The position numbers and the translations under genes are program-made. From an uncultured Bacteroidales bacterium (GTDB lineage: Bacteria; Bacteroidota; Bacteroidia; Bacteroidales; UBA4417), in the NCBI GenBank assembly GCA_903864265.1, contig CAIPFN010000243.1:1-60459 (forward strand): a stretch of DNA of 60,459 nucleotides, in the 5' to 3' direction. Numbering within the stretch: position 1 is the stretch's first letter; each line of letters opens with the position of its first letter. Positions 1-24,865 of the stretch are shown one piece after another. The notes under the pieces were generated by a model, which was not told the DNA's origin, ran no database searches, and worked only from the letters and a program-made list of their open reading frames with translations.

Positions 1-6
1 TGACGG

Positions 7-117
7 AGACAAGCATTACTACTCATTATTCATTTTCACTTTTCGTTCACGAGTAACCCCAAACCCCTAAAGGGGCTTATTGTAGACAAGCATTACTACT
101 CATTATTCATTTTCACT
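7..117. repeat. Two copies of a 34-bp direct repeat separated by 43 bp
   Basis: AGACAAGCATTACTACTCATTATTCATTTTCACT at 7-40 and 84-117; the spacer contains the hairpin CCCCTAAAGGGG. Confidence 0.85.
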
Positions 118-123
118 CTTCAC

Positions 124-170
124 TCCCGATAGCTATCGGGATCATTTTTCACTACCTTTAGCTATCGGGA
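124..170. repeat. REP-like palindrome plus a partial second copy
   Basis: Perfect 18-bp palindrome TCCCGATAGCTATCGGGA at 124-141; partial TAGCTATCGGGA at 159-170. Confidence 0.75.
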
Positions 171-187
171 TCACTTTTCCCCACCCT

Positions 188-234
188 CCTTTAACCTTTA
201 ACCTTTAACCTTTAACCTTTAACCTTTAACCTTT
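188..234. repeat. Heptamer tandem repeat (CCTTTAA)6.7
   Basis: Read directly; the same unit recurs at 34732-34784. Confidence 0.95.
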
Positions 235-273
235 CCACCTCCACCCGCTCTGCACACATTTCTGAACGCTTAT

Positions 274-1146
274 CTACTTAATCTCGTATGTTTCGCCCGG
301 AAGCAGCACATCCAGTGTGATTCCCCGGCCGCCAAGCAGCTTAGCCTGTACTTTTTTGCTTTTACCCGGGTTATGCAAAACGATCACCTGGTTTTCGCCG
401 GCTACCTTAAATTTATTTCCCGTTACAACAATGGCCGTGGATTCATCAATGCCTACACACACTTCTTCCGGGTTTTCGAGTTGCACGGCAATAAGCCTGT
501 TGAGGCGCTGCCGCTTGATAAAATGCTGGTCCACAATCATGTTTTCAACCAGCCCTAAACCTTCAGTTATCTCAATATTCCCGGGCTCAATGGTGGGATA
601 CCGGCCGGTATATTCTGGGTATTTCAGGGCATTGCCGGTAATCATTTTTTTACTCATTACGGCAGCCCCTGCGCTGGTCCCGGCAATAGTGGAGCCTTTG
701 GCATAGGCCTCATGAACAGCCTTGTAAATAGGTCCCTTGCCCACAATTTTCATAAAGCGGGTCTGGTCGCCGCCGGTAATAAATATGAGTTTGGCCTTCA
801 CTATGGAGTCGAGTTTCGACTGGGCAACCGGTCCGCTCAAGGTGAAGTTAAACCCTATAACTTTTGTAATGCCCGCCGAAGCAAAATCTTCTCTGGCAAA
901 AATCACCGAGCTGTCGGGATCTTCGCCCGACATGGGAAGTATGATTACATAATCGCCTTGGCCGGTACCCGATACCTTTAAAAGCTCCTGCATAAGCGCG
1001 GCGGTCTTTTCACCGCCTCCAATTATAAACAGGTGCCCACGGGCAGGTGTTTTCGGCTGACCTGCCATTTTCTGACTGAACGCCGCAGGCAAATGAATGA
1101 TAATAGTGAACACCAAAGTGATCGTTACAAGCAGTTTGCAATTCAT
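274..1146 (-). CDS. cphB: Cyanophycinase (peptidase S51) with N-terminal signal peptide
   Basis: Motifs IIGGGE, FITGGDQ, GTSAGA (catalytic Ser), VDQHFxxRxRxxRL and GIDEST; hydrophobic N-terminus ending AFS-Q. Confidence 0.88.
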   Translation of the reverse strand: MNCKLLVTITLVFTIIIHLPAAFSQKMAGQPKTPARGHLFIIGGGEKTAALMQELLKVSGTGQGDYVIILPMSGEDPDSSVIFAREDFASAGITKVIGFNFTLSGPVAQSKLDSIVKAKLIFITGGDQTRFMKIVGKGPIYKAVHEAYAKGSTIAGTSAGAAVMSKKMITGNALKYPEYTGRYPTIEPGNIEITEGLGLVENMIVDQHFIKRQRLNRLIAVQLENPEEVCVGIDESTAIVVTGNKFKVAGENQVIVLHNPGKSKKVQAKLLGGRGITLDVLLPGETYEIK

Positions 1147-1184
1147 ATCCTATTCTTTTAGTGAATGAAAATTCAGCTTACTCC

Positions 1185-2786
1185 TTAAAATCCGTTTAAT
1201 TTCATAGTTACCGTGGGGATGAGCAGCAGCCAGCCTATAAAAGCCAGGAACAGCATGAACGGTATCACAAATTTAACCCATTTGCCATACGGTACTTTGG
1301 CTATGCCTAAAACCCCGATCAGAACACCCGATGTTGGGGCGATCATATCGGTAATGCCGGCTCCGAACTGGAATGACATGATGGTGGCCTGCCGTGAGAG
1401 CCCTATAATATCCGAGAATTGAGCCATGATAGGGATGGTGAGGGCGGCCTTGGCCGAGCCGGAGGTAATGATGAGGTTAAGCAGCGACATGAATCCATAC
1501 ATGATGGTTACGGCCGTCAACTGCCCGGTGCCTTTCAGTGAATTAGAAAGCGAATGCAGCACGGTATCAATAATTTGTCCGTCGTTGAGTATAGCAATGA
1601 TGCCTCCTGCAAACCCCACTACCAGGGCTGCCGAAACGATATCCTTCACCCCCTCCTGGAAGAGTTTGGTGATTTCCGAGTTCTTTTTCCCTGCAGCAAA
1701 GCCTGTAAACACCCCCATGGCCAGGAACAGGGCGGCAATTTCCATAATGTACCAGTCGTACCCTAAAACTCCCAGCACAAGGTAGAAAATGGTAAACGCC
1801 AGAATATTCAGTATATAAAAATGAAGCGATTTGCGAAGCGCGAAAAAGCTGGTCACGGCATAAATGCCTGTTAAAACGGGAATGAACGGGCCTTTCACAG
1901 TATTTAATCCCACCCTTAAATTGGTTGAAGGGTAATAGAACGAATAAACCAGCATGATAACGAAAAGCACTCCGCCTACTATCCATGCTGACCGCGGGGT
2001 GTAATACTCAATTTTTTCCACATCCGATTCGCTTCTTTTGCGCCAGTATTCATCTTCGGAATACATGATGGATTTGGAAGGGGTTTTTTTCACCCGGCGG
2101 GCGTACCACAGCACAAAGGCGATAGCCAGGAAAGTGAAGATAAACCAGCAGATCACCCTGTATTCGATGCCGGTGAACAGGGGGACGCTCGCCAACCCCT
2201 GGGCGATCCCTATGGTGAATGGGTTCAGTATGGCGCCTGCAAAGCCGATATGAGCGGCAAAATAACAAAGTCCTATCCCAACCAGCGAATCGTAGCCCAT
2301 GCGAATGGAGAGTTGAACAAATATGATGGTAAAGGCAAGCGTTTCTTCGCTCATGCCGAAAATAGCCCCAAACGCGCTGAAAATGATCATGATAAAGACC
2401 ATAATAATGTTGTCGACACCCAGCATACGGATGAACTTATACTTTTCGAAGCGCTTGGTCAGGTTCAGGAAGGAGAGAATACCAATATCGATTGACCTGG
2501 TTTCGTTCATGATCCAGAAAGCCCCGCCTATCATCAGTATGAACACGATAATATGGGCCATTTTAACAAAACCGTTATAAAAAGCCGAGAATATCTGCCA
2601 GGTCTGGGGCTGGTTATCTACATTTTTAAAGGTATCATTCACGATCACCGATCGTTCCACACCATTTACCTTGATCGTCTGCCGGTCGTATTTTCCCCCG
2701 GGGACAAACCAGGTAAGCACGGCAGCCAGGATGATGATGGAAAATACAATGACAATATTATTCGGGACTTTAAAATTTTTCAGCAT
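1185..2786 (-). CDS. YfcC/DcuC-like amino acid or dipeptide transporter
   Basis: Multi-TM 533 aa; LTWFVPGGKYDR, FGMSEET, NPFTIGIAQGLA, SGSAKAALTIPIM and PTSGVL are typical of the YfcC family. Confidence 0.8.
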   Translation of the reverse strand: MLKNFKVPNNIVIVFSIIILAAVLTWFVPGGKYDRQTIKVNGVERSVIVNDTFKNVDNQPQTWQIFSAFYNGFVKMAHIIVFILMIGGAFWIMNETRSIDIGILSFLNLTKRFEKYKFIRMLGVDNIIMVFIMIIFSAFGAIFGMSEETLAFTIIFVQLSIRMGYDSLVGIGLCYFAAHIGFAGAILNPFTIGIAQGLASVPLFTGIEYRVICWFIFTFLAIAFVLWYARRVKKTPSKSIMYSEDEYWRKRSESDVEKIEYYTPRSAWIVGGVLFVIMLVYSFYYPSTNLRVGLNTVKGPFIPVLTGIYAVTSFFALRKSLHFYILNILAFTIFYLVLGVLGYDWYIMEIAALFLAMGVFTGFAAGKKNSEITKLFQEGVKDIVSAALVVGFAGGIIAILNDGQIIDTVLHSLSNSLKGTGQLTAVTIMYGFMSLLNLIITSGSAKAALTIPIMAQFSDIIGLSRQATIMSFQFGAGITDMIAPTSGVLIGVLGIAKVPYGKWVKFVIPFMLFLAFIGWLLLIPTVTMKLNGF

Positions 2787-3145
2787 ATCCTGATGGTTTC
2801 TGTTTAAGCAATGCTATGGATTAACAGGCTAAAATAAGAAGATTAACCAGAATAAAATGTTATTTGCTGTTTTTTTTTGACGCCATTGAAATCAGCGTCC
2901 AAATCCCGGTGGATCGCCTATTGGACTGGCGGCAAGTTGGAATGTCACCTGTAAGGGGAAAACCTGTCCGGTGGAATACTACGAATGATTTATCAGGCTT
3001 TAATTTGGGCCTTCGCTGTCTAAAAAGTGGGTTTTCACCCTGTTGTTGAGATAATCGCTCAGATATTTATTTGAATGCAAACTGCTTTTTTTGTATAAAA
3101 CGAAATTAAATTGTTAATCAATGTTAATATTCGTCATTTATTCCC

Positions 3146-3153
3146 TACATTTG
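3146..3153 (+). promoter_or_regulatory. Bacteroidota sigma70 -7 box for susC
   Basis: TACATTTG matches TAnnTTTG ~130 bp upstream of susC; TGTTAAT direct repeat at 3112 and 3122 just upstream. Confidence 0.55.
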
Positions 3154-3285
3154 AATTAACATTTCAATAACTTATCCGAAAGCCTGAAAAATATCAATAT
3201 TGCAATGAATATGAATTGAGCGAGAGGAACATTGAATAGCCAGATCCACCAAAACCAAATATTAACTAACCAAAAACAACATTGT

Positions 3286-6200
3286 ATGAAAAAAATCTAC
3301 GTTTTAGTAACGCTGATGTGCTTTATTTTCCTGCATGCGGCGAATGCTCAGAACCGGCTATTGTCGGGGCTGGTGACTTCAGCCGATGATGGATCCACCA
3401 TCCCGGGTGTTTCTGTCACGGTTAAAGGAAATCTGACCCTGGGAGCTATTACTGATATTGAAGGTAAATACCAGATTTCGGTGCCATCAACGGCACAGAC
3501 TCTTGTATTCAGCTCGGTTGGCATGCAGAAACTGGAAGTAGCCATTCTGAGTTCGAATGTGATCAATGTTTCCCTGATGCCCATCGCTACTAACCTCGAC
3601 GAAATCGTGGTCATAGGCTATGGTACCCAGATTAAATCGAAAGTAACGGGTAACATTTCGAAAGTGAACGGCGATCTGATCAGGAACACCCCGGTACCCT
3701 CGGTACAACAAGCTTTGCAAGGTAAAACGGCCGGGGTTTTTGTGGAAGCCAATAACGGGAAAGTGAGCGGTGCAACCCGTATGCGTATCCGCGGTTCTTC
3801 GTCCATTACGGCAAACAATGAACCTCTCTTTATCGTGGATGGAGTGCCTTTGACCACCGAGTCGCTGAACCAGACCGGGGCATCCATTAATCCCTTGACA
3901 AGCATTAACTTCAACGATATTGAATCCATTGATGTGCTGAAAGATGCTTCTTCCACCGCTATTTACGGTTCGAGAGGTGCCAATGGCGTTATACTGATCA
4001 CAACCAAGAAAGGCAAGGCAGGCGACACCAAGCTGAATGTGAATTTTCAGTATGGATACAGCAAAGCATCGCATATGCGCGAATTTTTAAATACCGACCA
4101 GTATATTTCCTATTTCCGCGAAGCAGCCTATAACAGTGACTTGCTGGAAGGATATGACCCTATTAATAATCCGGATGATTATGCAGGCTCCTGGCTTCAA
4201 TCGGCCGAAAAAAGATTTAAACGTTACAGTGGCTGGGCTGCAAAACTGGATGCCAGCCAAACGGTTCCTGGCAAAGATTATATAGGATCGCAGGTGAATA
4301 CCGACTGGCAGAAGCAGGCATTCCAGATCGGGGGATTACAGATGTTTGATTTCTCCGCTTCAGGGGGTACCGAAAAACTGAAGTACTTTGCCAGCGCCGC
4401 CTACAATAAACAGGAAAGTATCATTGTTTCCAATGGCCTCGATCGTTTCAGCGGCCGCCTGAACATTGACAACAAAGTGAATAACTTTATCGATCTGGGC
4501 TTCACACTGAGCCTGGCACGTACCAATATCAGGCAGGTTTCGGCCGATAACGCGTTTTCGACCCCGATGCAGCTGGTCGCCATGGCCCCCATTACCCCTA
4601 TACGGGATCTGCAGGGCCAGTTATACGGCACGCCCACTACCACCTATTATAATCCTCTGATTGATGTAGAGGATACCAGGCGAAACATACTGGAAACCCG
4701 AACCGTTACCAACGCGTATGTTAAATTCACTTTGATGAAAGGACTTGCCTGGAGAAACGAACTGGGTTATGACCTTTACAACCTGAAGGAAAACAGCCGT
4801 TACGGGAAACGTACCGATGCCGGGCAGGGCATCAACGGCTATGCTATTTCCAACTACGGGCAAACCCAGAACCTGGTAACCAAATCTTACCTCGATTACC
4901 TGAAGAACTTTGGCGATTTCGGGGTAAGTGCTGTTTTAGGAACCGAATTCCAGAAAACATCGGTGGATAACACCTGGGTGGATGGTCAGAATTTCTCGAC
5001 TGACGACCTGAAGACCCTCGCCAGTGCAGGACTGATTACCTCAGGTACTTCCACATTAAACGAGTATGCCTTCCTGTCGTATTTCTCGAGGGCCACTTTC
5101 GATTACAAGAGTAAATACCTGGTAACCCTGGCCGGACGTATTGATGAATCCTCGAGGTTCGGGTCCAAAAAACGGGAAGGATTTTTCCCTGCTGTTTCAG
5201 CCGGATGGGTGATTACGAAGGAAGAATTCCTGGCCAACAACAGTATACTCAGTTTCCTGAAAATCAGGACGAGTTACGGTAAGACCGGGAATGCCGGTAT
5301 AGGAAACTTCCGTTATCTGGGATTATACGGGGTAACTCCCTATAACGGTCAGCCGGGCTTAGCGCCAACCCAGATTGCCAATGACAATTTAGGATGGGAA
5401 AGCACCCGGCAACTCGATTTTGGACTTGACTTCGGGATTTTCCAAAACCGTATCTCAGGCGAAATTGATTATTACGTGAAAAAAACCAAGGACCTGTTGC
5501 TGGATGTACCGGTACCGGGCACCAGTGGTTTCAGCGTTCAAACCCAGAATATAGGTTCCGTTGAGAATAAGGGATTTGAATTTGTACTGAATACTTCCAA
5601 CCTGGTGGGTGACTTTAAGTGGAGTACGTCATTCAATTTTTCAGTGAACAAGAATAAGGTTACCGACCTGGGCGGACAGCAAATCATTGACCAGGGCAGT
5701 TCGCGTTTTATGAATGTGGTAAAAGTGGGAGAACCTTTAGGGGTTTTCTACGGAGCTCAATATGCCGGCGTTGACCCTGCAAACGGCGATGCCATATGGT
5801 ATGTGAACGAAAAGGATGCGAATGGCAATATTATAAACCCTGCCGCCACCACCAACGATTTCGCGTCAGCCAATTTCGTAGTGCTGGGGCATCCTACTCC
5901 TGATAACATGGCAGCCCTTACCAACACTTTCGAATATAAGGGAATAGAACTGTCCTTCACTTTCCAGGGAGTGAGCGGCAACAAAATCCACCTTACCGGT
6001 GATCCTTATATGGCTGCAAATGCGGCATGGTACGACAACCAGACTACCGACCAGCTCGCCAGCTGGAAAAAGCCGGGCGACATTACCAATATTCCCCAGG
6101 CCCGCCTTGGGTACGACAACGGCGACCAGGGACGCAACAGCCGCTACCTTTCGGATGGCTCCTACATCAAACTGCGTTCGCTGACCCTTGGGTACGAACT

Positions 6201-6405
6201 CCCTTCCGACCTGATCAAAAAAGCAAAATTCGAAAGGGTGCGCATCTACATCCAGGCTCAGAACCTGCTCACTTTTACAAAGTACATAGGCTGGGATCCG
6301 GAAGTTTCGTCGGATTTTGCGGTTGATAATGTTACATCGGGGGTTGATTTCTATTCGGCACCTCAGCCGCGTTCCATCACGCTGGGAATTAACATAGGGT
6401 TATAA
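3286..6405 (+). CDS. SusC/RagA-family TonB-dependent outer membrane transporter
   Basis: Signal peptide from MKKIY (start revised to 3286); IRGSSSI, PLFIVDGVP, DIESIDVLKDASSTAIYGSRGANGVILITTKKG, LGWEST; C-terminal beta-strand. Confidence 0.95.
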   Translation: MKKIYVLVTLMCFIFLHAANAQNRLLSGLVTSADDGSTIPGVSVTVKGNLTLGAITDIEGKYQISVPSTAQTLVFSSVGMQKLEVAILSSNVINVSLMPIATNLDEIVVIGYGTQIKSKVTGNISKVNGDLIRNTPVPSVQQALQGKTAGVFVEANNGKVSGATRMRIRGSSSITANNEPLFIVDGVPLTTESLNQTGASINPLTSINFNDIESIDVLKDASSTAIYGSRGANGVILITTKKGKAGDTKLNVNFQYGYSKASHMREFLNTDQYISYFREAAYNSDLLEGYDPINNPDDYAGSWLQSAEKRFKRYSGWAAKLDASQTVPGKDYIGSQVNTDWQKQAFQIGGLQMFDFSASGGTEKLKYFASAAYNKQESIIVSNGLDRFSGRLNIDNKVNNFIDLGFTLSLARTNIRQVSADNAFSTPMQLVAMAPITPIRDLQGQLYGTPTTTYYNPLIDVEDTRRNILETRTVTNAYVKFTLMKGLAWRNELGYDLYNLKENSRYGKRTDAGQGINGYAISNYGQTQNLVTKSYLDYLKNFGDFGVSAVLGTEFQKTSVDNTWVDGQNFSTDDLKTLASAGLITSGTSTLNEYAFLSYFSRATFDYKSKYLVTLAGRIDESSRFGSKKREGFFPAVSAGWVITKEEFLANNSILSFLKIRTSYGKTGNAGIGNFRYLGLYGVTPYNGQPGLAPTQIANDNLGWESTRQLDFGLDFGIFQNRISGEIDYYVKKTKDLLLDVPVPGTSGFSVQTQNIGSVENKGFEFVLNTSNLVGDFKWSTSFNFSVNKNKVTDLGGQQIIDQGSSRFMNVVKVGEPLGVFYGAQYAGVDPANGDAIWYVNEKDANGNIINPAATTNDFASANFVVLGHPTPDNMAALTNTFEYKGIELSFTFQGVSGNKIHLTGDPYMAANAAWYDNQTTDQLASWKKPGDITNIPQARLGYDNGDQGRNSRYLSDGSYIKLRSLTLGYELPSDLIKKAKFERVRIYIQAQNLLTFTKYIGWDPEVSSDFAVDNVTSGVDFYSAPQPRSITLGINIGL

Positions 6406-6426
6406 TCACTAAAAGACATGTATAAT

Positions 6427-7773
6427 ATGAAAAAGATAAAATCAATAATGGCTATCATCACGCTACTGATTCTGGGCAGTTCGTGCACGAAATATCTTGA
6501 CCTGAAGCCTCAGCAGAACCTGGATGAAAGTGTAGCTTTAAATTCGGATGCCAATGTCAAAACGGTGCTTATCGGTGCCTATCGGGCTATGCGTTACAGC
6601 GCCATATACGGAGGCTGCATATTGCGCAATTCGGAGCTTTTAGGAGGAACAGGAGAAATTTCGTGGCAGGGAACCTATAACGGTCCGCGCGAAATCTATA
6701 ACCACGCCATCATTGCCGCCAACGGTGATATCACGAGTCAGTGGCTGGATAGCTATATCTGCATAAATATTTGCAATAACGTACTCTCGGCCCTCGCGGT
6801 GGTTGACGAAGCTGACAGGGGAACGGTTGAAGGCGAAGCCTTATTCCTGCGCAGCATGATGTATTTCGACCTGGTGCGTTTTTATGCCCAAGGCTATGAA
6901 CCCGGTGCAGCAAATTCGCAACTTGGTGTTCCCCTGGTGCTTACGCCCACCCATGGCATTAGTGTTACCAATAACGTGGGACGTAATACCGTGGAAGAAG
7001 TTTATACCCAGGTGCTGGCTGATTTAACCCGTGCGGCTACCTTATTGCCTGATGCAAACGGATATTATGCTACTTCGGGTGCCGCTAATGCTTTGCTTTC
7101 CCGCGTGAATCTTCAGAAAGGCAACTATGCCGGTGCCAGGGATGCTGCCGACAAGGTAATCAGTTCAGAGTTGTATTCCCTGACAGCTACCTATGCCCAG
7201 GCATTCAATAACACCGAATCCTCTTCAGAGGATATTTTCTCCACCAAATTTATTCCGGCCGACGGCATTAACCAAATGACCGAATTCTGGTCAACTACCG
7301 AATATGGCGGAAGGGATGGCGATATTGAAATTCTGGACGGGCATCTCAGCCTCTATGATCCTTCGGATGAGCGACTGGCTATGTTCTGGATTGGAAATGA
7401 CGCTTACCGGTCAGGGAAATGGAATACTCAATATGGTTTGGTTAATTTGTTCCGACTGGCCGAAATGTACCTCATCAGAGCCGAATGCAACCAGCGATTA
7501 GGTACCGAGGTAGGTGATACGCCAACCAACGATTACAATATGACACATACCCGTGCGGGCTTAGCTGCAGCCGAATCGGTCACGCTTGAGGATATTCTCC
7601 TCGAACGCAGACTCGAACTGGCTCATGAAGGGTTTAAACTCCATGATATGAAAAGACTCAAACTCAACGTTGGCGATTTGCCTTACAACGATCCAAAAAT
7701 GATATTCCCGATTCCCGACAGGGAAATGTCGGCCAACCCGGCATTAAAAGGACAGCAGAACGAAGGATACTAA
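6427..7773 (+). CDS. SusD/RagB-family surface lipoprotein
   Basis: Lipobox LGSSC; GEALFLRSMMYFDLVRFY, FRLAEMYLIRAE, ERRLELAHEG; directly downstream of susC (alternative start 6418). Confidence 0.93.
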   Translation: MKKIKSIMAIITLLILGSSCTKYLDLKPQQNLDESVALNSDANVKTVLIGAYRAMRYSAIYGGCILRNSELLGGTGEISWQGTYNGPREIYNHAIIAANGDITSQWLDSYICINICNNVLSALAVVDEADRGTVEGEALFLRSMMYFDLVRFYAQGYEPGAANSQLGVPLVLTPTHGISVTNNVGRNTVEEVYTQVLADLTRAATLLPDANGYYATSGAANALLSRVNLQKGNYAGARDAADKVISSELYSLTATYAQAFNNTESSSEDIFSTKFIPADGINQMTEFWSTTEYGGRDGDIEILDGHLSLYDPSDERLAMFWIGNDAYRSGKWNTQYGLVNLFRLAEMYLIRAECNQRLGTEVGDTPTNDYNMTHTRAGLAAAESVTLEDILLERRLELAHEGFKLHDMKRLKLNVGDLPYNDPKMIFPIPDREMSANPALKGQQNEGY

Positions 7774-7793
7774 AGTTGACAGATGACGAAAGT

Positions 7794-7824
7794 AAAGAAG
7801 CCGGTTTTAACAGCCGGCTTCTTT
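7794..7824. terminator. Bidirectional intrinsic terminator between susD and the GNAT gene
   Basis: AAAGAAGCCGG...CCGGCTTCTTT inverted repeat between convergent genes. Confidence 0.8.
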
Positions 7825-7848
7825 GCGTTTATACATGAAGGATGTGTT

Positions 7849-8328
7849 TTATTCCTCATGTCTGAACAAAGGCAGGGCGGTTAGGCGGGCTACAACTTCC
7901 GAACCCAGGTCCCCTTCAGGGCTGAAAGCCCAGACGAACATCGCTTTTACAGGATGGTCCTTTCGAATGTTTTCGATTGCCGAAAGTGCAAGTTGTTTTG
8001 CTATTCCTTTTCGCCGGAACTCAGCCAGCACCATGGCCGAACAGAGGTACAGGGCCTCATAGGGTGTATCCAGGGGGGTAAGCTCGAATAACTCTTTTTC
8101 CGAGATTTCTTTGTTTAGAAACCGGTTCATCAAATCTGTTGTTGTAGGTATGAGCAGCACCCATGCTACAGGGCCATTCCCGTCGTCGTATTCCGAAACT
8201 GTTGCAGGATGTATCCTTTGCAGGCGTTGCAACACCTCCTGGTTAACATCAAGCTGGCTGGGGTCATTTTTGCTGGCAAAAACTTCGTCGGCCAGTTGTA
8301 TCATGCGTTCGAAATGACTTAGAGACAT
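7849..8328 (-). CDS. GNAT-family N-acetyltransferase
   Basis: Acetyl-CoA-binding motif VLAEFRRKGIAKQL. Confidence 0.7.
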   Translation of the reverse strand: MSLSHFERMIQLADEVFASKNDPSQLDVNQEVLQRLQRIHPATVSEYDDGNGPVAWVLLIPTTTDLMNRFLNKEISEKELFELTPLDTPYEALYLCSAMVLAEFRRKGIAKQLALSAIENIRKDHPVKAMFVWAFSPEGDLGSEVVARLTALPLFRHEE

Positions 8329-8441
8329 AGTTTAGAAATTGAGTTAAATTGTGAAAGGTGATTCTCGATGCCCGCTTTCAAGTGCAGAGGGATTTTGCTT
8401 ATGCTTGCCGGCGAGGTCAGCCGGTGAGCCTGGTCATACTT

Positions 8442-8795
8442 TTAATGAAAATCACCGGCAGTCGCTATTTTTCTTACTTCAACGCTGTTTCCTTCTCCCT
8501 GAAGTACAGGGCAGCCTTTTGCAAACTCAACGGCTTCGTCAGGCGAACCGGCTTTTACAAGGATGTATCCTCCTATCGTTTCTTTTTTTTCGCCAAAAGG
8601 ACCGTTTGTAACCGACGTGTCGTGATGCACTACCCGGCTTTCGCTAAATAATAAGCCGTTTCCGCCGGTTAGTTGGTTCCGGGCCGCAATACCTGCCATC
8701 CAGTCGGAGGTTTGTTTCATCCACATCTGAATTTGTTCAGGTGATGCTACCTTATGTCCATCTTCGTGCCTGAAAATCAAAATATAATCATCCAT
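8442..8795 (-). CDS. YciI/DGPF-domain protein
   Basis: VTNGPFGEKKETIGGY...EAVEFAKGCP...VEVR; -7 box (TACTTTTG on minus strand) at 8838-8845. Confidence 0.85.
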   Translation of the reverse strand: MDDYILIFRHEDGHKVASPEQIQMWMKQTSDWMAGIAARNQLTGGNGLLFSESRVVHHDTSVTNGPFGEKKETIGGYILVKAGSPDEAVEFAKGCPVLQGEGNSVEVRKIATAGDFH

Positions 8796-9235
8796 TGGTT
8801 CCGGATTTTAAGGGTACATAAGTTTAAATTCACAATCCAAAAGTAAGTTTTGGGTTTCGAAATTACAAATTATTGTAACTAATCATCCGCCCAAAAAAAT
8901 ATTTCAGTCGCAGATTTCATAGGTTAACACCGATTTCCATTCCTCTTTGATGGCTTTTATGTTTAATTTTTCTGATTGATATAATCCAAATCTGCGAAAT
9001 CAGTAGCATGTATTAGATTCTCAATACTTTGTAAGGAGTGAACAGCTGCAATTTTTAACTTCCGGGAATATCAACCCAAAACAGATATCACAGCCCTTGA
9101 TTCCGGCTGTGTCAACTGTAAACTAAAATTCAGCCTGTGAGAAAGCAGGTTCTAGTCGCCCGAATCTTTTTTAGCTGAAGATGGAAGTTTTTTCTTCTTC
9201 TTTTCACGGCTATGGCATCCATATTTTTATCCTCT

Positions 9236-9243
9236 TACCTTTG
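9236..9243 (+). promoter_or_regulatory. -7 promoter box for the SNF2 gene
   Basis: TACCTTTG 55 bp upstream of the ATG. Confidence 0.6.
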
Positions 9244-9298
9244 CAACGGATTACAAACCGAATTTTAAGAGCTAAAGCTGGCCGGGAATATTTTAGGA

Positions 9299-12268
9299 AT
9301 GGAAAAGCAAACATTTGTAGCAGCATTGTTATCGTATGTTAAACCAATAGGATACGTCATTTTACCCTATTCCTGTTTCAGGGGAAACGATAACTTTATC
9401 ACTGTTCATGAACGATTGACACTGATGAATACCAGGCAATACCCGGGTTTGGGGGATGGCGTACTGGAAATCATCAGGCAAACCGAAAGTTTTTCGAACC
9501 TGGCGCTGATCAGGCAGTTTTCGAAGAAAGCGCTCACGCCCAAGGACTTTTTTGCAACCCTCGACAAGAAGCTCCTGGATGAAATGATCAGGCCTTTTGT
9601 GGAACGTAAGCTCGCCAAAATAATCGGAATTCTCCATGATCAAGACATCCCGCTATACATTGGCAATGGCAACACCAATTTATACCCCGAAGACAAAATT
9701 ACATTCAGCAACGAAACCCCCAGGGCTACCTTAAAGTTTACACGGACCGGCGAAGGTACCCAGTACAAACTCCGGGCTTTTCATGCTAATGAGGAAATAA
9801 TACTGAATGATCCTGCCAATAAAGTGCTGGTAAATGATCCGTGCTGGTTTGCCGAAGGGAATAAATTAATCCGTTTCCCGGAAAATATCAGCGGTAAACT
9901 TCTCAACCCTTTTAAAAACAAGGACTTTATCGCCATCCCAAAAAGCCTGGAATACAAATACTTCAGTACATTTATCCGCAAAATAGCCAACCGTTGCGAA
10001 ATTGAAGCCGAGGGGTTCCAGGTGAAGGACCTTCAGCAGCAGCCAAGGGCCATCCTCTCGCTGGAAGCTGACTGGCAGGGAACCATAGTATTGGTGCTTT
10101 TCTTCCAGTATGGCGATAAAGTGATATTGGCCAACAACCCGCAAAAATCATTTACCAGCTTACTCGCCGACGAAAGCGGTTTCATTTTTAACCGGTTCAG
10201 GCGTCACCAGACCTGGGAAGCAGCCCAGGTGGCTTTCCTGAAAGCCAGGAAGCTGAAACAACTGGAAGCCACTTTCCGGATTGAGGAAACGGAGACTTCC
10301 CTGCATAAAGGATACCGCCTGCTGGAATGGCTGGCAGTTAACCAGGAGGAGCTTACTGCCCATTTGTTTACCATCAGGCAGACCGAAAGCAACAAGTACC
10401 TGCTGGAAATCCCGGTATTAAACCTGAGCATGACCACCGGACAGGATTGGTTTGATATACAGGGCACTGTAGTGCTGAAAAATTTCGAAATCCCTTTTAT
10501 CAGCTTTAAAAATCATATCATCAACAATATTAAGGAATTCGAACTTCCAAGCGGGGAAATAGTGATCCTGCCCGACGAATGGTACGCACGCTTCCAGGAA
10601 ATGATGATGTATTCCCGGGAAAACAAAACGGCGATCCGTATACGGAAACATCATTTCAAATTATTACCCGACGTACTCACAGCTGAGAATGAGCAACTCG
10701 AAGGCTCGTTGTCATCACCCGAAGCTGTCGTACTTCCTGAACTGGCCAATGTAACCATGCGGTCTTACCAGGTCTCAGGGTTTTATTGGATGCATGCCCT
10801 TCAACAACACGGTTTTGGAGGAATACTGGCCGATGATATGGGCCTTGGCAAAACTCTGCAAACTCTGGCTCTGCTGGCATCATATTATCCATATACCAAC
10901 TGGGATACAGCTTCATCACTACCCATTTCAAGCGGATTTTCGTTGCCGGAAGCTGTTCAGCTTGATTTATTTGCAGCACCTGCATCCATTCCTGAAAGTA
11001 AACCTTTCGCCCCAAAGCCTTCAGGGGCTGACCGGCCTCCCTGCAGCCTTATAGTGCTCCCGGCCTCCCTTATTCATAACTGGCTGAACGAAATCATCCG
11101 CTTTGCGCCCTGGCTGAAGGTGCATATACATTCGGGAACCAACCGCAGGACGGATACAAAATCATTCAGCCGGCATGATATCATTCTTACCACCTATGGT
11201 ACAATGCGAAACGACATTGAAATGCTCGGCGCTTATATTTTTGGATACGTGATACTCGACGAAAGTCAGACTATTAAAAACCCGTCTTCGCGGGCCACAC
11301 AGGCTGTGTTTAAGCTGCAGAGCCGGCATAGGCTGGTGCTTACAGGAACACCTATTCAGAATTCCTTATCCGATGTATGGTCCCAGTTTAATTTTTTGAA
11401 TCAGGGTATGCTCGGGACTCATCATCATTTCATGAAATATTATGTCGTCCCTTTGTCGAAAAACCCTGACGACAGGGTAGGGGAGAAGCTTAGGAACCTG
11501 ATCAGCCCGTTTATACTGCGCAGGACCAAGGAAGAGGTGGCTCCGGAACTTCCCCCCGTTACAGAAACAGCAGTGTATTGCGAGATGACCGAAGAACAGC
11601 AGCACCTTTACGAAACGGAAAAGTCGAAGGTCCGGAACCTGATCATCGAAAATTTCAATACTGAGGGCGGCAAAAATTCAGCGGTCTTGGTGCTGCGGTC
11701 GCTGACCATACTGAGGCAGCTGGCCAACCATCCGCGAATGATCGAATCCGGTTCTGATGCCGGCAGCGGGAAATTTAAAGAAGTTACCGAAAGCCTCGAG
11801 ACGGTACTTGCCGAAAACCACAAAATACTGATATTTTCTTCCTTTGTTAAACACCTTAAACTACTGGAAGAATTCTGTACCGAGAAAGGCTTCAAATATG
11901 CCTTGCTTACCGGCTCAACCACCAACCGGGAGAAGGTGATCAGTTCGTTTAAAAGCAAAAGCGACATTCAGCTGTTTCTCATTTCGCTCAAAGCCGGTGG
12001 GGTTGGGCTCAACCTTACCGAAGCGGATTACGTATTTATCCTCGATCCGTGGTGGAATCCGGCGGCCGAGATGCAGGCCTTAAACCGGGCGCATCGCATA
12101 GGGCAGGATAAGAAAGTATTTGTTTACCGCTTTATCACCAAAGAAACCGTGGAGGAAAAAATAGTCCTCTTGCAGCAAAAGAAAAAGAACCTGGCTGATT
12201 TGTTTGTCACATCCGATACCCTGATAGCCGGTATGACCCGGGACGAAATTCTGGGCATATTTTCATAA
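9299..12268 (+). CDS. SNF2-family (DEAD/H-like) helicase/ATPase
   Basis: GILADDMGLGKTLQ, ILDESQTIKN, LTGTPIQN, FILRRTK, SLKAGGVGLNL, DPWWNPA, QALNRAHRIGQ. Confidence 0.93.
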   Translation: MEKQTFVAALLSYVKPIGYVILPYSCFRGNDNFITVHERLTLMNTRQYPGLGDGVLEIIRQTESFSNLALIRQFSKKALTPKDFFATLDKKLLDEMIRPFVERKLAKIIGILHDQDIPLYIGNGNTNLYPEDKITFSNETPRATLKFTRTGEGTQYKLRAFHANEEIILNDPANKVLVNDPCWFAEGNKLIRFPENISGKLLNPFKNKDFIAIPKSLEYKYFSTFIRKIANRCEIEAEGFQVKDLQQQPRAILSLEADWQGTIVLVLFFQYGDKVILANNPQKSFTSLLADESGFIFNRFRRHQTWEAAQVAFLKARKLKQLEATFRIEETETSLHKGYRLLEWLAVNQEELTAHLFTIRQTESNKYLLEIPVLNLSMTTGQDWFDIQGTVVLKNFEIPFISFKNHIINNIKEFELPSGEIVILPDEWYARFQEMMMYSRENKTAIRIRKHHFKLLPDVLTAENEQLEGSLSSPEAVVLPELANVTMRSYQVSGFYWMHALQQHGFGGILADDMGLGKTLQTLALLASYYPYTNWDTASSLPISSGFSLPEAVQLDLFAAPASIPESKPFAPKPSGADRPPCSLIVLPASLIHNWLNEIIRFAPWLKVHIHSGTNRRTDTKSFSRHDIILTTYGTMRNDIEMLGAYIFGYVILDESQTIKNPSSRATQAVFKLQSRHRLVLTGTPIQNSLSDVWSQFNFLNQGMLGTHHHFMKYYVVPLSKNPDDRVGEKLRNLISPFILRRTKEEVAPELPPVTETAVYCEMTEEQQHLYETEKSKVRNLIIENFNTEGGKNSAVLVLRSLTILRQLANHPRMIESGSDAGSGKFKEVTESLETVLAENHKILIFSSFVKHLKLLEEFCTEKGFKYALLTGSTTNREKVISSFKSKSDIQLFLISLKAGGVGLNLTEADYVFILDPWWNPAAEMQALNRAHRIGQDKKVFVYRFITKETVEEKIVLLQQKKKNLADLFVTSDTLIAGMTRDEILGIFS

Positions 12269-15765: not shown

Positions 15766-16998
15766 CTACCTGCTTCGTTTTTTGAATGTAACCCTGCCTA
15801 TACAAATTGTCTTATCATCCAGTGCCGGATCGAGGGATAAAAAGCCCGTAAATGCAGCTTGTTTTAAATGTCCGTCGGAATACCTGAGGATGACTGAATA
15901 ATTCCGTATTTCGTAAGTGCCGCTTCCGGCAGTTGTAACCGAAGTGCCATCCCTGTGATATTGCAATGCAGTATTAAAAATACCTTCATCGGTAAATTGC
16001 CCGTTGGCGGAAAATCGGATCAAAGCCTTTTGACCCAATGCACCCTTGTCAAGATCAGGGTTATCGGGCTCTTCCCAGGAGGTCCACGACCCGTTCAGCC
16101 GTAAACCATCCACCGGTTTACAATGTTGATAATACTGTGAGCTGATAATCATGTTACCCCTTTCGTTCAGTTTCACATCTATATCAATTACACCCGGTCG
16201 TTTAATAATCCAGTTTCCTGCTCCATTATTTATATACCTGCTCCAGAATTGAGCTTCCGCGGATTCGCTTTCCGGTTTATTGAAACCTGCAAACCCCATG
16301 TCGGGTATAGCTTCGTATACCTGCCCGTTACTGTAAAATGTTTTCCAGATGGTATGGCCCAGCGTCAGCGGGTCGCCATAAAATGCTTTCATATAAATGC
16401 CCATCCATACACCTTCAATTCCATTTTTTGTATTAAAGCATGGAGGCGAATTAACTTTGGATGTAGATTGAATAACAGTGGTTGCAGCAACAGCATGCGC
16501 AACTGCGGGAGGAACTTTTTTTAATGTCAATCCATTAAAAAAAGTTTCAATTGTGCTCTGATAACCTGCATCATTTGACAAAGTCAAGATATTGGTTGTC
16601 AGCCCGAAACCTACGATGGTCGAGAGCATGGCTGTCCCTGACAGGTTGCCGTTTACAAAACCTGCAGCGCCCAGTATCACTTCGCGACCTTCGTCGTCGG
16701 AAACCTTGTCGGTTTGAGGTAAGTCTTTAATATGAAGGGGAGTGGCGGCCAGCACAGACCAGTTCCTGTCGAATTCTTCGCGTGCAGTTCCTTTGCTGGC
16801 CTGGCTTGCATAGATACTGATAGTGCAATATATTCCTTTCGCATTGTCCGTAGCGATATAGCTGACAACTCCTTCCCTTGTCGATTTTTCCCAGCCTTGG
16901 GGAATGGTATAGGTGGCAATGTCAAAGGTTTCGGTTTGCGCAAAGGCGCTAATAGTCAGGCCTAAGCCTATGAGTATCAAAAGATATTTTTTTATCAT
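15766..16998 (-). CDS. Secreted hypothetical protein
   Basis: 410-aa ORF with signal peptide (..SAFA-Q); no family recognised. Confidence 0.75.
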   Translation of the reverse strand: MIKKYLLILIGLGLTISAFAQTETFDIATYTIPQGWEKSTREGVVSYIATDNAKGIYCTISIYASQASKGTAREEFDRNWSVLAATPLHIKDLPQTDKVSDDEGREVILGAAGFVNGNLSGTAMLSTIVGFGLTTNILTLSNDAGYQSTIETFFNGLTLKKVPPAVAHAVAATTVIQSTSKVNSPPCFNTKNGIEGVWMGIYMKAFYGDPLTLGHTIWKTFYSNGQVYEAIPDMGFAGFNKPESESAEAQFWSRYINNGAGNWIIKRPGVIDIDVKLNERGNMIISSQYYQHCKPVDGLRLNGSWTSWEEPDNPDLDKGALGQKALIRFSANGQFTDEGIFNTALQYHRDGTSVTTAGSGTYEIRNYSVILRYSDGHLKQAAFTGFLSLDPALDDKTICIGRVTFKKRSR

Positions 16999-17047
16999 CA
17001 GTTAATGATGGTTTTGTTGAACGATGTAGTTGCCTGATAGACTGATT

Positions 17048-18202
17048 TTACTTTACCAGCATTTCCTGTAATTTATTGAAATCGAAATTATCTTCAAACA
17101 CTTTTTTTGCTTTCAAAGTTGTAGCTGAGGAAGTTTGATTGCGGATTTCAACTGTAACAAATTGTGGTGCGGATATGGGTAGTTTACTGTTAATATAGTC
17201 CGGATTTAAAGTAACAGCCGGTGAACCTCCATCGTCAGGATTCTTAAACATATCATTTGTAATCGGGTCGTAGCCTATATTCATATTCCCGATAAATGGT
17301 TTATCTAATTGTGCTTCTGAAGAAGCACGAATGTATTTGTCAATATTGTCAATATACTTCTGAATCAAATTTTTTTCTTTTGCCGTTTTAACATTTTCTT
17401 TTCCCTCAATATATGACTTTTTATATTTTTCTTTGATTTCGTCTGCTTCAGTTTTACTATACTGCGCTGCTAATTTTGCATATTCTAACTGAACCAGGTA
17501 TTGTTCGAAGGTTTGGGCAAGAATATCGTTGTAGATTTTATTTTCATGATCACGCATCACGGTAAAATAAGCCTTTTTGATACTGAGAATTTCTTTAATG
17601 CTAACGGGCACAAAAAGCGGGATACCGGGCTTGCTTACCACAATACGTCTTGCATCACCATCATTAATATACCAGGCAAAAGAACCGTATTTTTCGCTTT
17701 CAGTCCGCGGATGCAGGATGTAAATCTGCCTTCCGTCAACGGTTTCCGTAACTTCTTTTTCTTCGTTTTTGTCACCATATTCTTGATGGGAACAGGCAGC
17801 AGCTATGGAATTCAGAGAGTTAAAACTTAAGCTTAAAACCAATCCGGATTCCTCTTTTTCGTACAATTTCTTCTCTTTGGTGCAACCCAATTCAAGCATA
17901 TGAGTTTTAATATTGTAAGGCAATATTTTTTCTGTATGTACTGAGTTGATGCTAGCACTCCAGGTGCCTCTTAAGCCTTTGGTTTTATTGATGGCTTCGT
18001 TAATTACCGAGGTAAAAATGGCAGTCATCCATTTTTCCGCTTCTTTTGCGGCAGCCTTATCCTGCGAGATGTCCATAAATATCTTATTCTCGCCCCGTTT
18101 GCAGGAGGAGGGAGTATTACGGGCATCTTCGGAAGTTTCGCATTGCCCGAAAAGGGAAGCAGTAAAAATAAGGACGGCGGGTACCAGGAGTAGCTTTTTC
18201 AT
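17048..18202 (-). CDS. Secreted hypothetical protein, paralog of 18232..19248
   Basis: Signal peptide; shares KPxxPLFxP, VTxNPxYIN, QFxTxE and NFDFxKLQxML with the neighbouring gene. Confidence 0.78.
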   Translation of the reverse strand: MKKLLLVPAVLIFTASLFGQCETSEDARNTPSSCKRGENKIFMDISQDKAAAKEAEKWMTAIFTSVINEAINKTKGLRGTWSASINSVHTEKILPYNIKTHMLELGCTKEKKLYEKEESGLVLSLSFNSLNSIAAACSHQEYGDKNEEKEVTETVDGRQIYILHPRTESEKYGSFAWYINDGDARRIVVSKPGIPLFVPVSIKEILSIKKAYFTVMRDHENKIYNDILAQTFEQYLVQLEYAKLAAQYSKTEADEIKEKYKKSYIEGKENVKTAKEKNLIQKYIDNIDKYIRASSEAQLDKPFIGNMNIGYDPITNDMFKNPDDGGSPAVTLNPDYINSKLPISAPQFVTVEIRNQTSSATTLKAKKVFEDNFDFNKLQEMLVK

Positions 18203-18231
18203 GGGTCTGGTTTTTCAAAATATAATTTCCC

Positions 18232-19248
18232 TTATAATTTCCCAAGCATAGCCTGTAGTTTTTTAAAGTCAAAGTTGTTTTTAAATTCTTTAAACGCTGA
18301 AAATATTGTAGTATCATCTTGTATAAACCATTCGATAGTAATAAATTGTACGGATGCTGCAGCGGCGTTTTTATTGATATAGGAGGGATTGAAAGTTACC
18401 CAGGGGTTTCCCATTGTTGCATCATCCACATACGTTTCTCTTCTAACGTATGGAATTTGCTCAGATCTATCCCAAATAGTGATGCAAGGTTCATTGTAAA
18501 ATTCTTTATTGCCCGATTTATAAGTGTTGATGAATTTTTCAATTCGCTCAGCAGATACATTATACTTATCGTTAGGTTTTTGTAAATTATATGCTGCAAT
18601 CCAGTTTTTATATAATTCTAAAAATTCACCAACAGTAATAGGTTTAAATAATGGAACATCAGGTTTTGTGATAATTACACATGATTTTTCAGGTGTTTTG
18701 TTCCATCCTGTATAATAAAGTGGGAAACCTTTAAAGCTTTCTTCCTGTTGTTTTTCGGAGATCACATAAATTAAATGACCATCTATAAAATCCTGACCAT
18801 TTTTTTCGGTAAAGCCGCTGGCTTTCTTTTTATCCCGGATTACATAAGGTTCAAAACCATTGATTAAAACAGAAAACCTCAGTTGTGGACCTCCTTTTTT
18901 GTTTAATTCACCATTGCTTTCGCGGTAAACAGCAGTTAGTGTAATCTCCAGTTTGCCTTTAACCAATCCCTCGTTACTTATATCATCCACCAGTGCCCTC
19001 CAAGAGCCACTGATACCTTTAGAGTTTTTAAATGCTTCATCAAACAAAGCACAAATTTCTTTCATTTTTTTGTACATGATTTCGGTATTGGCTTTGTTTT
19101 GTTTACCCCCGCTACCAATGTAAACATAGTAGTTGCTGTTGTCTTCAGCAGACGAAAAGGGTACTTGTGCGGCTTGCCCTGCTGTGTTTTGGGAAAACGA
19201 CTGCATTGCGCAGGAAATGAAGATTAACAGGATGGTCAGATTTTTCAT
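18232..19248 (-). CDS. Secreted hypothetical protein, paralog of 17048..18202
   Basis: Signal peptide (..SFS-Q); same shared motifs as above. Confidence 0.78.
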   Translation of the reverse strand: MKNLTILLIFISCAMQSFSQNTAGQAAQVPFSSAEDNSNYYVYIGSGGKQNKANTEIMYKKMKEICALFDEAFKNSKGISGSWRALVDDISNEGLVKGKLEITLTAVYRESNGELNKKGGPQLRFSVLINGFEPYVIRDKKKASGFTEKNGQDFIDGHLIYVISEKQQEESFKGFPLYYTGWNKTPEKSCVIITKPDVPLFKPITVGEFLELYKNWIAAYNLQKPNDKYNVSAERIEKFINTYKSGNKEFYNEPCITIWDRSEQIPYVRRETYVDDATMGNPWVTFNPSYINKNAAAASVQFITIEWFIQDDTTIFSAFKEFKNNFDFKKLQAMLGKL

Positions 19249-19414
19249 AGCCTTTATTTATGACGATTATTTTATTCTACCTCACTTCAGAAGCTTTAAT
19301 TTCCGGTGTTTTGGTTTTTATTGCAGGCTGTATTGCATGTTTTTGAGAAGTTTTAAGTGTATTCGCTGCTTCCGGTTGACCTGATGACATTAAAGTCTCC
19401 TTTAACAGATATTT

Positions 19415-20803: not shown

Positions 20804-20826
20804 AATGTCGATTTATTTTGATAAAA

Positions 20827-20921
20827 CTAGTCCAAATCCTTCTCGCAGATATAATCCTGATGGCCCGACTGCCGCTCCAATCATAATCCTAACATGATTT
20901 ATTGTAAACAATGGTTTTAGC
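20827..20921 (-). pseudogene. Decayed 3' remnant of a homolog of 23046..24335
   Basis: Minus strand reads GHQDYICEKDLD* (versus GHQLYVCQKELK*) and, in another frame, AKTIVY (versus AKSIVY). Confidence 0.6.
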
Positions 20922-20962
20922 CCAGGCCGGCACACTACAAAAGCTGCCACAACTTGCTGATG

Positions 20963-22816: not shown

Positions 22817-22826
22817 TATGGAGGAT

Positions 22827-23021
22827 CTAGGTTTTATGACTCCGTTTTTTTTTAGGCAATGTTTTTAAAGAGGAAGAATCTTTTCCCTGTTGCTGAAATT
22901 TTGAGAGCATTGACTGGGCATCTTTAACCATTTTATCTATCTCCGCCTGGGAAGGTTCCTGGCAAAACCCATTCAGAAAAAACAGAACAAAAGAGAGGGT
23001 GGTGAGGATGATTTTTTTCAT
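22827..23021 (-). pseudogene. N-terminal (signal peptide) fragment of the frameshifted gene 20963..23021
   Basis: MKKIILTTLSFVLFFLNGFC-Q signal peptide; frame ends just after an A9 run. Confidence 0.7.
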
Positions 23022-23045
23022 GACATTTTGGTGCTAATTGAAAAA

Positions 23046-24335: not shown

Positions 24336-24421
24336 GGTCTATTTTTTTGAGATTTTAGATTTTCAGCATGCTTGACATCAACAGCGTTCTTTCCGGAAAG
24401 TGAATCATGGTCAATGGGAAC

Positions 24422-24865
24422 TCACTTTTTGATCCGTACATATTTTTCAACAGTAGCCTCTTTTTTATCCATGACACCCTTATCGTCAACCGGATACGTT
24501 TGGGTGAGGGTATCATTCTTTATTTCCAGGGTCATTTTGATTGTTTTGCCTTCCCAGGGCTTGTAAAAAAGAATACTTACATTTTCCTCGTATAGGTTTC
24601 CTTCCAGTTTGAATGTTCCGGTACCATAGGCATCCGTAACAGTTGTATCTGCTTTTATACGGGCAACAAACATCCAATGATTGCCCGACCAGATTTTTGT
24701 CAGATCCATATCCATTTTACCCGGGAAATCTACCACCGACGAATCGCCTTTAAATGTTTGGGAATGAGCGAGTTTCCAGGCGCCTTCGATATTGAGGCTA
24801 TTCTTCTGGCTACAAGCGCTGATGATGAATGTTGCTATTAAAATGCAAAAGAGATTTGTTCTCAT
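24422..24865 (-). CDS. Hypothetical lipoprotein, possibly lipocalin-like
   Basis: Lipobox IISAC; IEGAWKL (GxW) start of a small beta-rich domain. Confidence 0.65.
   Translation of the reverse strand: MRTNLFCILIATFIISACSQKNSLNIEGAWKLAHSQTFKGDSSVVDFPGKMDMDLTKIWSGNHWMFVARIKADTTVTDAYGTGTFKLEGNLYEENVSILFYKPWEGKTIKMTLEIKNDTLTQTYPVDDKGVMDKKEATVEKYVRIKK

Follow-up and report, generated by a model that had tools for sequence, protein, structure and literature searches.

The window, a 60,459-bp stretch of DNA from an uncultured Bacteroidales bacterium (GTDB lineage UBA4417; GenBank assembly GCA_903864265.1, contig CAIPFN010000243.1, positions 1 to 60,459), carries near its left end four genes that our results suggest form a locus for scavenging exogenous cyanophycin. 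Cyanophycin is an Asp-Arg nitrogen store, and a large pool of fixed nitrogen is freed when cyanobacteria and other producers lyse. In the model that we favour, and to which we assign a probability of roughly 60%, a SusC/SusD pair (SusCD) would import the polymer, a periplasmic cyanophycinase (gene cph) would degrade it, a YfcC-family carrier would take up the dipeptide beta-Asp-Arg and the dipeptidase IadA would split it. More narrowly, we regard it as very probable that yfcC-cph-(iadA) forms a catabolic module for cyanophycin and beta-Asp-Arg. An initial annotation of this DNA had proposed such a system, modelled on polysaccharide utilization loci (PULs), for exogenous cyanophycin, and the proposal is supported as far as the sequence goes.

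The four genes lie where they had been annotated, and the divergent spacing between them, put at about 500 bp in that annotation, measures 499 bp. The features are as follows.

274 to 1146, minus strand: predicted exported S51 cyanophycinase, 290 aa (TIGR02069, PDB matches, conserved residues)
1185 to 2786, minus strand: YfcC/DcuC-family inner-membrane carrier, 533 aa (PF03606, 320 bits)
2787 to 3285, no strand assigned: divergent control region between yfcC and susC, 499 bp (alignment with the related loci L033 and L034)
3286 to 6405, plus strand: SusC/RagA-type TonB-dependent outer-membrane transporter (TIGR04056, TIGR04057, plug)
6418 to 7773, plus strand: SusD/RagB-family surface lipoprotein (PF14322, PF07980)

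With cph 38 bp after yfcC on the same strand, apparently co-transcribed with it, and SusCD divergent from both, the locus shows the clustering of a cyanophycinase with a transporter that marks a "cyanophycin utilization locus". This term was proposed for Bacteroidetes strain L21-Spi-D4 (Salinivirga cyanobacteriivorans) by Ben Hania et al. (2017, Environ Microbiol 19:1134), as cited in the excerpted text of PMC10206079 (Sharon et al. 2023), where such clusters are described as common in genomes without the cyanophycin synthetase gene cphA.

The S51 protein and its neighbouring carrier

The S51 protein scored 73 bits on Peptidase_S51 and passed the cut-off of the cyanophycinase equivalog TIGR02069 (150.9 vs. 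126.6 bits), and on the dipeptidase PepE model NF003642 it reached 41 bits against a cut-off of 156. Its best PDB matches were the cyanophycinases 7uqv (6.7e-28) and 3en0 (7.2e-19), with the motifs aligned; the catalytic triad S158/H208/E235 lies in AGTSAGA, DQHF and GIDE and aligns with both structures. A Ser-His-Glu triad of cyanophycinase is described in the excerpted text of PMC3235067, according to which Gln101, Asp172, Gln173, Arg178, Arg180 and Arg183 of CphB are critical for activity, in a pocket beside the catalytic Ser132. By counting along the 3en0 alignment, where the numbering of the chain runs 20 ahead of the native one, we found S158 aligned with Ser132, and Q128, D206, Q207, R212, R214 and R217 aligned with the six pocket residues in the same order. 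H208 and E235 we take to be His174 and Glu201 of CphB. All nine triad and pocket residues were invariant in four orthologs with 43-72% identity. Since the equivalog cut-off is passed and both the triad and the beta-Asp-Arg pocket are kept, the identification of the protein as a bona fide cyanophycinase holds by sequence, and the protein most likely hydrolyses cyanophycin to beta-Asp-Arg. The enzyme is described as an exo-cyanophycinase with the dipeptide as product in the excerpted text of PMC10206079.

The protein was also annotated as bearing a cleavable-type signal peptide, and this agrees with what we see. The alignment to the solved cytoplasmic cyanophycinases starts only after an N-terminal extension of about 30 residues (MNCKLLVTITLVFTIIIHLPAAFS/QK), which has a hydrophobic core and an A-F-S/Q site, and both inspection by eye and a crude hydrophobicity rule point to a Sec-type N-terminus. 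The rule, which differs from SignalP, asks for an extension of at least 20 residues that includes a 10-residue window with a Kyte-Doolittle value of 2.0 or more. When 84 orthologs were examined, all 76 with parsable N-termini passed it (8 were unparsable), and a lipobox-like Cys was present in 27 cph orthologs; the entire ortholog group thus appears to be exported. The window protein sequence itself holds neither a lipobox nor a C-terminal domain of the type IX secretion system (T9SS), and in a Bacteroidota cell an enzyme that lacks the T9SS tag should stay periplasmic. As a type, this cyanophycinase is CphE-like by location and CphB-like by size.

The carrier, annotated as a YfcC-family transporter, belongs to the DcuC/YfcC superfamily. 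It falls below the cut-off of the YfcC equivalog NF008611 (347.8 vs. 500 bits), a model of the E. coli putative basic amino acid antiporter. From its adjacency to cph we propose that it is the importer of beta-Asp-Arg.

SusC belongs to a clade that holds most SusCs found beside cyanophycinases

The longest open reading frame (ORF) of susC opens at TTG 3232 (3232-6405); the likely start is ATG 3286, giving MKKIYVLV at the N-terminus. The protein is built of a signal peptide, a CarboxypepD_reg-like N-terminal domain (CarbopepD_reg_2), a plug (74.9 bits) and a barrel, and scored 838.5 bits on TIGR04056 (cut-off 368.25) and 70.1 bits on the TIGR04057 signature (cut-off 46.2). The start of susD lies 12 bp after susC. 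SusD scored 97.3 bits on SusD-like_3 (PF14322, cut-off 27) and 67.4 bits on SusD_RagB (PF07980, cut-off 23.1), and its N-terminus contains LLILGSSC, judged by eye to be a lipobox. It shares 78% identity with its counterpart in L034 and 40-44% with SusDs of Flavobacterium cph loci, and the best paralogs in its own genome reach 31% for SusC and 28% for SusD.

PDB sequence searches were tried as a guide to substrate and set aside, as the SusC and SusD matches fail to separate peptide importers from glycan importers: the window SusC matched 8aa4 (1.3e-125), RagA (6sli_B, second best, 2.3e-116) and 5t3r (1.7e-110), and the match of RagB to the window SusD was weak (1.8e-6).

A more informative picture was obtained from phylogeny. 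We built a FastTree tree of 88 SusCs, comprising 38 from cph loci (including five from genus-mates), 17 unlinked homologs, 7 paralogs from the same genome, the window SusC and 25 further top-scoring SusCs of five complete genomes. A clade of 53 rows with support 100 held 36 of the 38 cph-linked SusCs, 16 unlinked ones and the window SusC. All 32 background or own-genome paralogs lay outside it, as did two second-copy SusCs of cph loci and one unlinked SusC. This was further supported by IQ-TREE (LG+G4, short search) on 42 rows, in which a 24-row clade had an SH-aLRT of 100 and included none of the 18 background rows. Two subclades (9 and 15 rows) are wholly cph-linked, and in the third, 11 linked rows from the Flavobacterium loci are joined by the window with L034 and by the unlinked SusCs. 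The rows were chosen by hand, the linked ones via cph, the unlinked ones by likeness to the window SusD and the background from six genomes; the clade appears real, and its exclusivity is limited by this choice. The possibility that the window SusC would instead cluster with arbitrary SusC paralogs was not borne out.

Gene content of cph loci across Bacteroidota

By a pattern scan we detected 230 relatives of the enzyme in species-representative genomes and confined the comparison to the 80 best loci (44-71% identity). They span Bacteroidales, Salinivirgaceae, Cytophagales, Chitinophagales and Flavobacteriales, and their contents were determined by tblastn with the window proteins and with proteins of a related locus, L023.

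SusC or SusD: 35 of 80 loci (of the 43 loci flanked by 8 kb or more on each side, 23)
YfcC homolog: 27 of 80 loci, in 23 within 400 bp of cph
Long S51 protein (with a T9SS sorting domain in L023): 22 of 80 loci
IadA: 16 of 80 loci
PKD/choice-of-anchor-J protein: 16 of 80 loci
Extracytoplasmic function (ECF) sigma factor: 8 of 80 loci

The order of the genes varies, for example SusC-SusD-PKD-S51long-IadA-ECF-Cph-YfcC, IadA-SusC-SusD-PKD-Cph-YfcC-S51 and S51long-SusC-SusD-...-Cph. The order of the window recurs in L034 and L033, which read SusD<-SusC<- ->YfcC->Cph->IadA (L033 is cut inside susC) and whose proteins are 78-81% (SusC), 78% (SusD) and 88-89% (YfcC) identical to those of the window.

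Among genomes of the same genus 19 of 24 have S51 matches, and only one, G006, has an ortholog of cph (72-74% identity). The five genus-mates that were inspected all have another type of locus, in which M28-IadA is divergent from S51long-S51(~430 aa)-SusC-SusD-PKD, and a YfcC homolog was present within the fetched 20 kb in two of the five.

A further variant is seen in Flavobacterium (L087:1745-12987), where SusC-SusD is followed in turn by an opposite-strand class-III aminotransferase (ornithine-aminotransferase-like), an AsnC/Lrp regulator, an M28 peptidase, cph and a penicillin-amidase-family protein. Ten loci in Flavobacteriaceae are similar (L088, L091, L094, L098, L100, L108, L109, L146, L155 and L156); some of these lack part of the gene set, L100 and L146 are arranged differently, and none has iadA. 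In four genomes with such loci IadA was above cut-off in none and Asparaginase_2 was present elsewhere in all four.

iadA follows cph in the close relatives

The initial annotation suggested that a dipeptidase gene (iadA/iaaA) could lie left of the window. In the close relatives this suggestion holds, as iadA lies directly after cph in all four (L004, with cph 72-74% identical, and the Bacteroidales metagenome-assembled contigs L033, L034 and L035, each with cph 71% identical); in the source genome the contig itself begins at window base 1, 273 bp beyond cph. The 3.4-kb contig of G006, the same-genus relative among the four, reads yfcC -> cph -> iadA; its iadA is truncated at the contig end and scored 306.8 bits over 242 aa. 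A signal peptide is absent from IadA.

The iadA of L034 is faced by a convergent M28 peptidase gene. M28 peptidases with a signal peptide recur (L034:10711-12300, L163-L167, L087:8415-9911 and, in the source genome itself, C367:64-1638), and their gene adjoins iadA in L034 and the five genus-mates and immediately precedes cph in the Flavobacterium loci; 10 of the 80 loci were matched. The M28 protein of contig C367 (2106 bp) is 58.6% identical to that of L034, and its 3' end lies at the contig edge. C367 was considered as the left neighbour of the window, since it fits the order M28-> <-iadA <-cph, and was not accepted, as the join is unproven. The idea that the M28 or penicillin-amidase-like proteins serve as the dipeptidase of the iadA-less Flavobacterium loci was likewise set aside; it is weakened by the Asparaginase_2 (IaaA-type) proteins found elsewhere in those genomes.

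Proposed pathway and alternative explanations

Gene context and the SusC clade suggest that the SusD lipoprotein would bind cyanophycin chains or oligomers from lysed producers and that SusC would import them with TonB energy. In the periplasm, where the signal peptide would place it, the Sec-exported exo-cyanophycinase, identified by homology and its pocket, would clip off beta-Asp-Arg. The YfcC-family carrier, to judge from its adjacency, would move the dipeptide across the inner membrane, and a cytoplasmic IadA, whose gene is predicted from all four close relatives to lie just past the contig end, would split it into Asp and Arg. As an exo-enzyme with a dipeptide product would act in the periplasm, it is the polymer or oligomer that would have to cross the outer membrane.

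Several observations weigh against this pathway. Cyanophycin is a polymer of 25-100 kDa, and its passage through SusC is the weak point of the model, as no surface depolymerase is seen in the incomplete genome: in this 64%-complete assembly tblastn with the 660-aa S51 of L023 matched cph alone, and no second, T9SS-tagged S51 was found. Nor was iadA found there, with no IadA (TIGR01975) or IaaA-type (PF01112) protein above cut-off. We infer the link between SusCD and cyanophycin from gene context, which is its sole basis, and in the literature searched we found no experimental test of such a SusCD-linked locus; a search on cyanophycinase and SusD returned only a species description.

The comparison of loci also has its exceptions. 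As many as 32 of the 80 cph loci hold none of SusC, SusD, YfcC, IadA or the long S51. In nine annotated loci of this kind the neighbours of cph are unrelated housekeeping or regulatory genes that give no hint of an alternative transporter, with the exception of L061, which has a small TonB-dependent receptor gene two positions ahead of cph. L034 shares with the window even the SNF2 helicase next to susD, and the synteny of L033 and L034 may therefore reflect close kinship and is not independent support. L035, whose cph is equally close (71%), lacks the SusD-SusC block. It shares the flanks of the window, an S9 peptidase on one side and cph-iadA on the other, and at the position taken in the window and L034 by SNF2-(GNAT)-SusD-SusC-YfcC it has nothing but a YfcC, inverted and 57% identical; the SusCD-YfcC block has been gained or lost at this site. 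The conserved synteny of cph and SusCD that the initial annotation asked for is thus upheld by L033, L034 and the 35 loci with SusC or SusD, and fails in L035.

A search in the reverse direction, starting from SusD, was less favourable. Among 400 other Bacteroidia genomes 44 had a SusD match at E <= 1e-30, and at only 3 of the 20 best places (33-57% identity), all in one family, was cph present within about 9 kb. The three closest SusCDs, in G041 (57% for SusD, 50% for SusC), G229 and G325, are not linked to cph. G229 and G325 have cyanophycinases elsewhere in the genome, G041 has just a sub-cut-off S51 of 72 bits, and G195 (SusD 43%) has no cyanophycinase match at all. The neighbours of the unlinked pairs include M14 carboxypeptidases, a Zn-metallopeptidase, S41 and S15/S9 peptidases and unknown proteins. 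In three related unlinked loci a GH130 gene is divergent beside SusC, and GH92 is nearby without being co-oriented.

These observations can also be accommodated by two independent units, a yfcC-cph-(iadA) catabolic operon and a SusCD pair that is a RagAB-like general oligopeptide importer, with fragments or dipeptides released by the community entering through porins or other receptors. Such a separation is in keeping with the closest SusCD homologs beyond the group of the window, which are unlinked to cph and lie beside assorted peptidases, with G195, which has a member of the SusC clade and no cyanophycinase, and with L035, which retains cph-iadA without the SusCD block; in L039 and L042, too, cph and iadA occur with a YfcC of 70-71% identity, and SusCD is missing from the 10 kb around. 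However, a periplasmic exo-cyanophycinase would be left without substrate if only dipeptides entered, 36 of the 38 SusCs beside cph orthologs share the clade of the window SusC, the linkage of cph and SusCD persists through several gene orders, and in both the window and L034 one divergent control region of 499 bp in the window is common to SusCD and yfcC-cph. We consider two separate units less likely than cyanophycin import by SusCD, to which they are the main alternative.

A bolder form of the import model would make the 53-row clade one SusC/SusD lineage ancestrally dedicated to the polyamide cyanophycin and not to glycans. The window would then be a minimal "selfish" form that imports whole chains or long oligomers and leaves all depolymerisation to the periplasm, and a later shift to other peptides would account for the unlinked members beside M14, S41 and S9 peptidases. 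We hold this to be rather unlikely.

It is improbable that the S51 protein and IadA act on other beta-aspartyl (isoaspartyl) peptides, such as damaged-protein fragments or microcin C-type peptidyl-nucleotide antibiotics. S51 peptidases can serve elsewhere, for example in microcin C resistance, according to the excerpt of a bioRxiv preprint, and the IadAs of cyanophycin clusters are described as promiscuous for isoaspartyl dipeptides in the excerpted text of PMC10206079. Against this, the enzyme passes the cyanophycinase cut-off and stays far below that of PepE, keeps all six critical pocket residues and carries an export signal; a peptidase for self-immunity should rather be cytoplasmic.

Intracellular turnover of an own cyanophycin store is very improbable, even though cphA could have been missed in a genome that is 64% complete: as had been noted, there is no cyanophycin synthetase in the window, and none was found in the assembled genome either (best TIGR02068 match 65 bits against a cut-off of 850, with the sub-cut-off matches in Mur-ligase-like ORFs), which argues for scavenging, as do the signal peptide of the enzyme and the linkage to outer- and inner-membrane transporters.

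Comparison with known systems

RagAB of Porphyromonas gingivalis, a SusCD-type oligopeptide importer, resembles the window pair in being a SusC/SusD-family pair without a CAZyme (carbohydrate-active enzyme) partner and in importing a non-glycan, as we propose for the window; it differs in that the match of RagA to the window SusC is no closer than those of glycan SusCs. The abstract of the 2017 Salinivirga study by Ben Hania and colleagues reportedly describes a transport complex homologous to PULs. In the Salinivirga locus, from the same phylum, cyanophycinase gene(s), iadA and a transporter for scavenging are clustered (excerpted text of PMC10206079), and of the two S51 enzymes described for S. 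cyanobacteriivorans one has a Por-secretion domain (excerpt of PMC6243061). In contrast, the window has a single S51 with a plain signal peptide and neither a PKD-type protein nor a sigma factor. In the Salinivirgaceae metagenome-assembled genomes L041 and L043 cph is directly followed by SusC-SusD, whereas in the window SusCD is divergent, and its SusC belongs to subclade III and those of Salinivirgaceae to subclade II.

CphE of Pseudomonas anguilliseptica BI and CphEal of P. alcaligenes DIP1 are, in the excerpted text of PMC3235067, Sec-exported S51 enzymes that convert exogenous cyanophycin to beta-Asp-Arg with the same triad and Arg pocket. CphE differs in its size of about 420 aa, its release into the medium and a Thr in place of Gln173 (same excerpt), whereas the window enzyme has 290 aa and keeps Q207. 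The aot operon of Pseudomonas aeruginosa with CphZ (AotO) is similar in combining, according to the excerpted text of PMC9974463, beta-Asp-Arg uptake with cytoplasmic cleavage in a non-producer. Its uptake runs through the ABC importer AotJQMP, its dipeptidase is of the M14 type, and it lacks both a cyanophycinase and an outer-membrane receptor. The locus type of the window instead combines SusCD and an exported cyanophycinase with a YfcC-family carrier and, in relatives, IadA.

Taken together, the window locus is a minimal, divergently arranged member of an already predicted locus type, the idea of which dates from 2017; it is minimal in that it has no T9SS-anchored second S51, PKD-type surface protein or sigma factor, which many such loci have. 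What is new here is that the SusCs beside cyanophycinases, including that of the window, form one clade and thereby a defined transporter set, that iadA follows cph in relatives, and that the whole enzyme group appears to be exported. If the model is true, lake Bacteroidales would capture cyanophycin with the pedal-bin machinery used for glycans, and the substrates of SusCD would extend to a non-ribosomal polyamide. The locus offers candidates for the outer- and inner-membrane transport steps of cyanophycin scavenging.

Control region, flanking genes and contig end

About 190 bp of the spacer between yfcC and susC (2787-2985), rather G+C-rich, are absent from the close relatives L033 and L034. 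This segment gave no Rfam match and had only one 32-bp match elsewhere in the genome. An Rfam search of window positions 1-9300 at E <= 1 returned no matches, and a listing of all ORFs of 10-60 codons in 2787-3285 revealed no leader-peptide ORF and no recognisable regulator gene. Scanning for sigma-70 promoters gave 8 sites, compared with 16.0 +/- 4.6 in shuffled sequences, a result that is uninformative as the model does not cover Bacteroidota promoters.

Two further features border the locus.

7792 to 7826, no strand assigned: hairpin, bidirectional terminator-like (15-bp stem, -27.7 kcal/mol)
1 to 273, no strand assigned: dispersed short repeats at the contig end (tandem-repeat listing and match to other contigs)

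The hairpin, which corresponds to the terminator annotated at 7794 as closing the SusCD pair, has a z-score of -5.65, and none of 200 shuffled sequences folded equally well. On one side of it lies susD and on the other, convergent with susD, a weak GNAT-like ORF (7849-8328). Beyond this ORF lie an SNF2 helicase and an S9 prolyl oligopeptidase, so that, as had been remarked, no CAZyme adjoins SusCD, and the co-location of the two that defines a classical glycan PUL is lacking. The SNF2-family helicase (9299-12268, 989 aa) is conserved beside susD in L034; with it no NCBIfam model came near its cut-off, the best matches being a pilus-regulating Snf2 helicase and defence helicases of the ZorD/DrmD type.

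Proteins of 526-536 aa without a Pfam match follow directly after SusD in unlinked members of the SusC clade (L143:5742-9269; L149:7305-8885), and these could be accessory surface proteins or new peptidases.

The source is an assembly of 392 contigs, and window base 1 is the first base of contig C243 (1-60459). The repeats at its end consist of a 29-bp unit present 2.3 times, which contains the palindrome TCCCGATAGCTATCGGGA, and of CCTTTAA present 6.7 times. This repeat family occurs on more than 20 other contigs of the same genome, often at contig ends, which explains why the assembly stops just downstream of cph; the family probably lies behind much of the fragmentation of this assembly. For positions 274-7773 a look-up of sequencing runs gave no RNA run and four DNA runs, all from one study, with 8-17% of the sampled words. 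Examined for window positions 1-3400, these four runs gave short low-depth pieces and no leftward contig that reached iadA.

Further to the right, the region 15766-25445 holds eight ORFs (seven on the minus strand and one on the plus strand; 147-617 aa), none with a Pfam family at E <= 1e-12, and this run is flanked by a Trp/Tyr-tRNA synthetase-class gene and a SnoaL-like gene.

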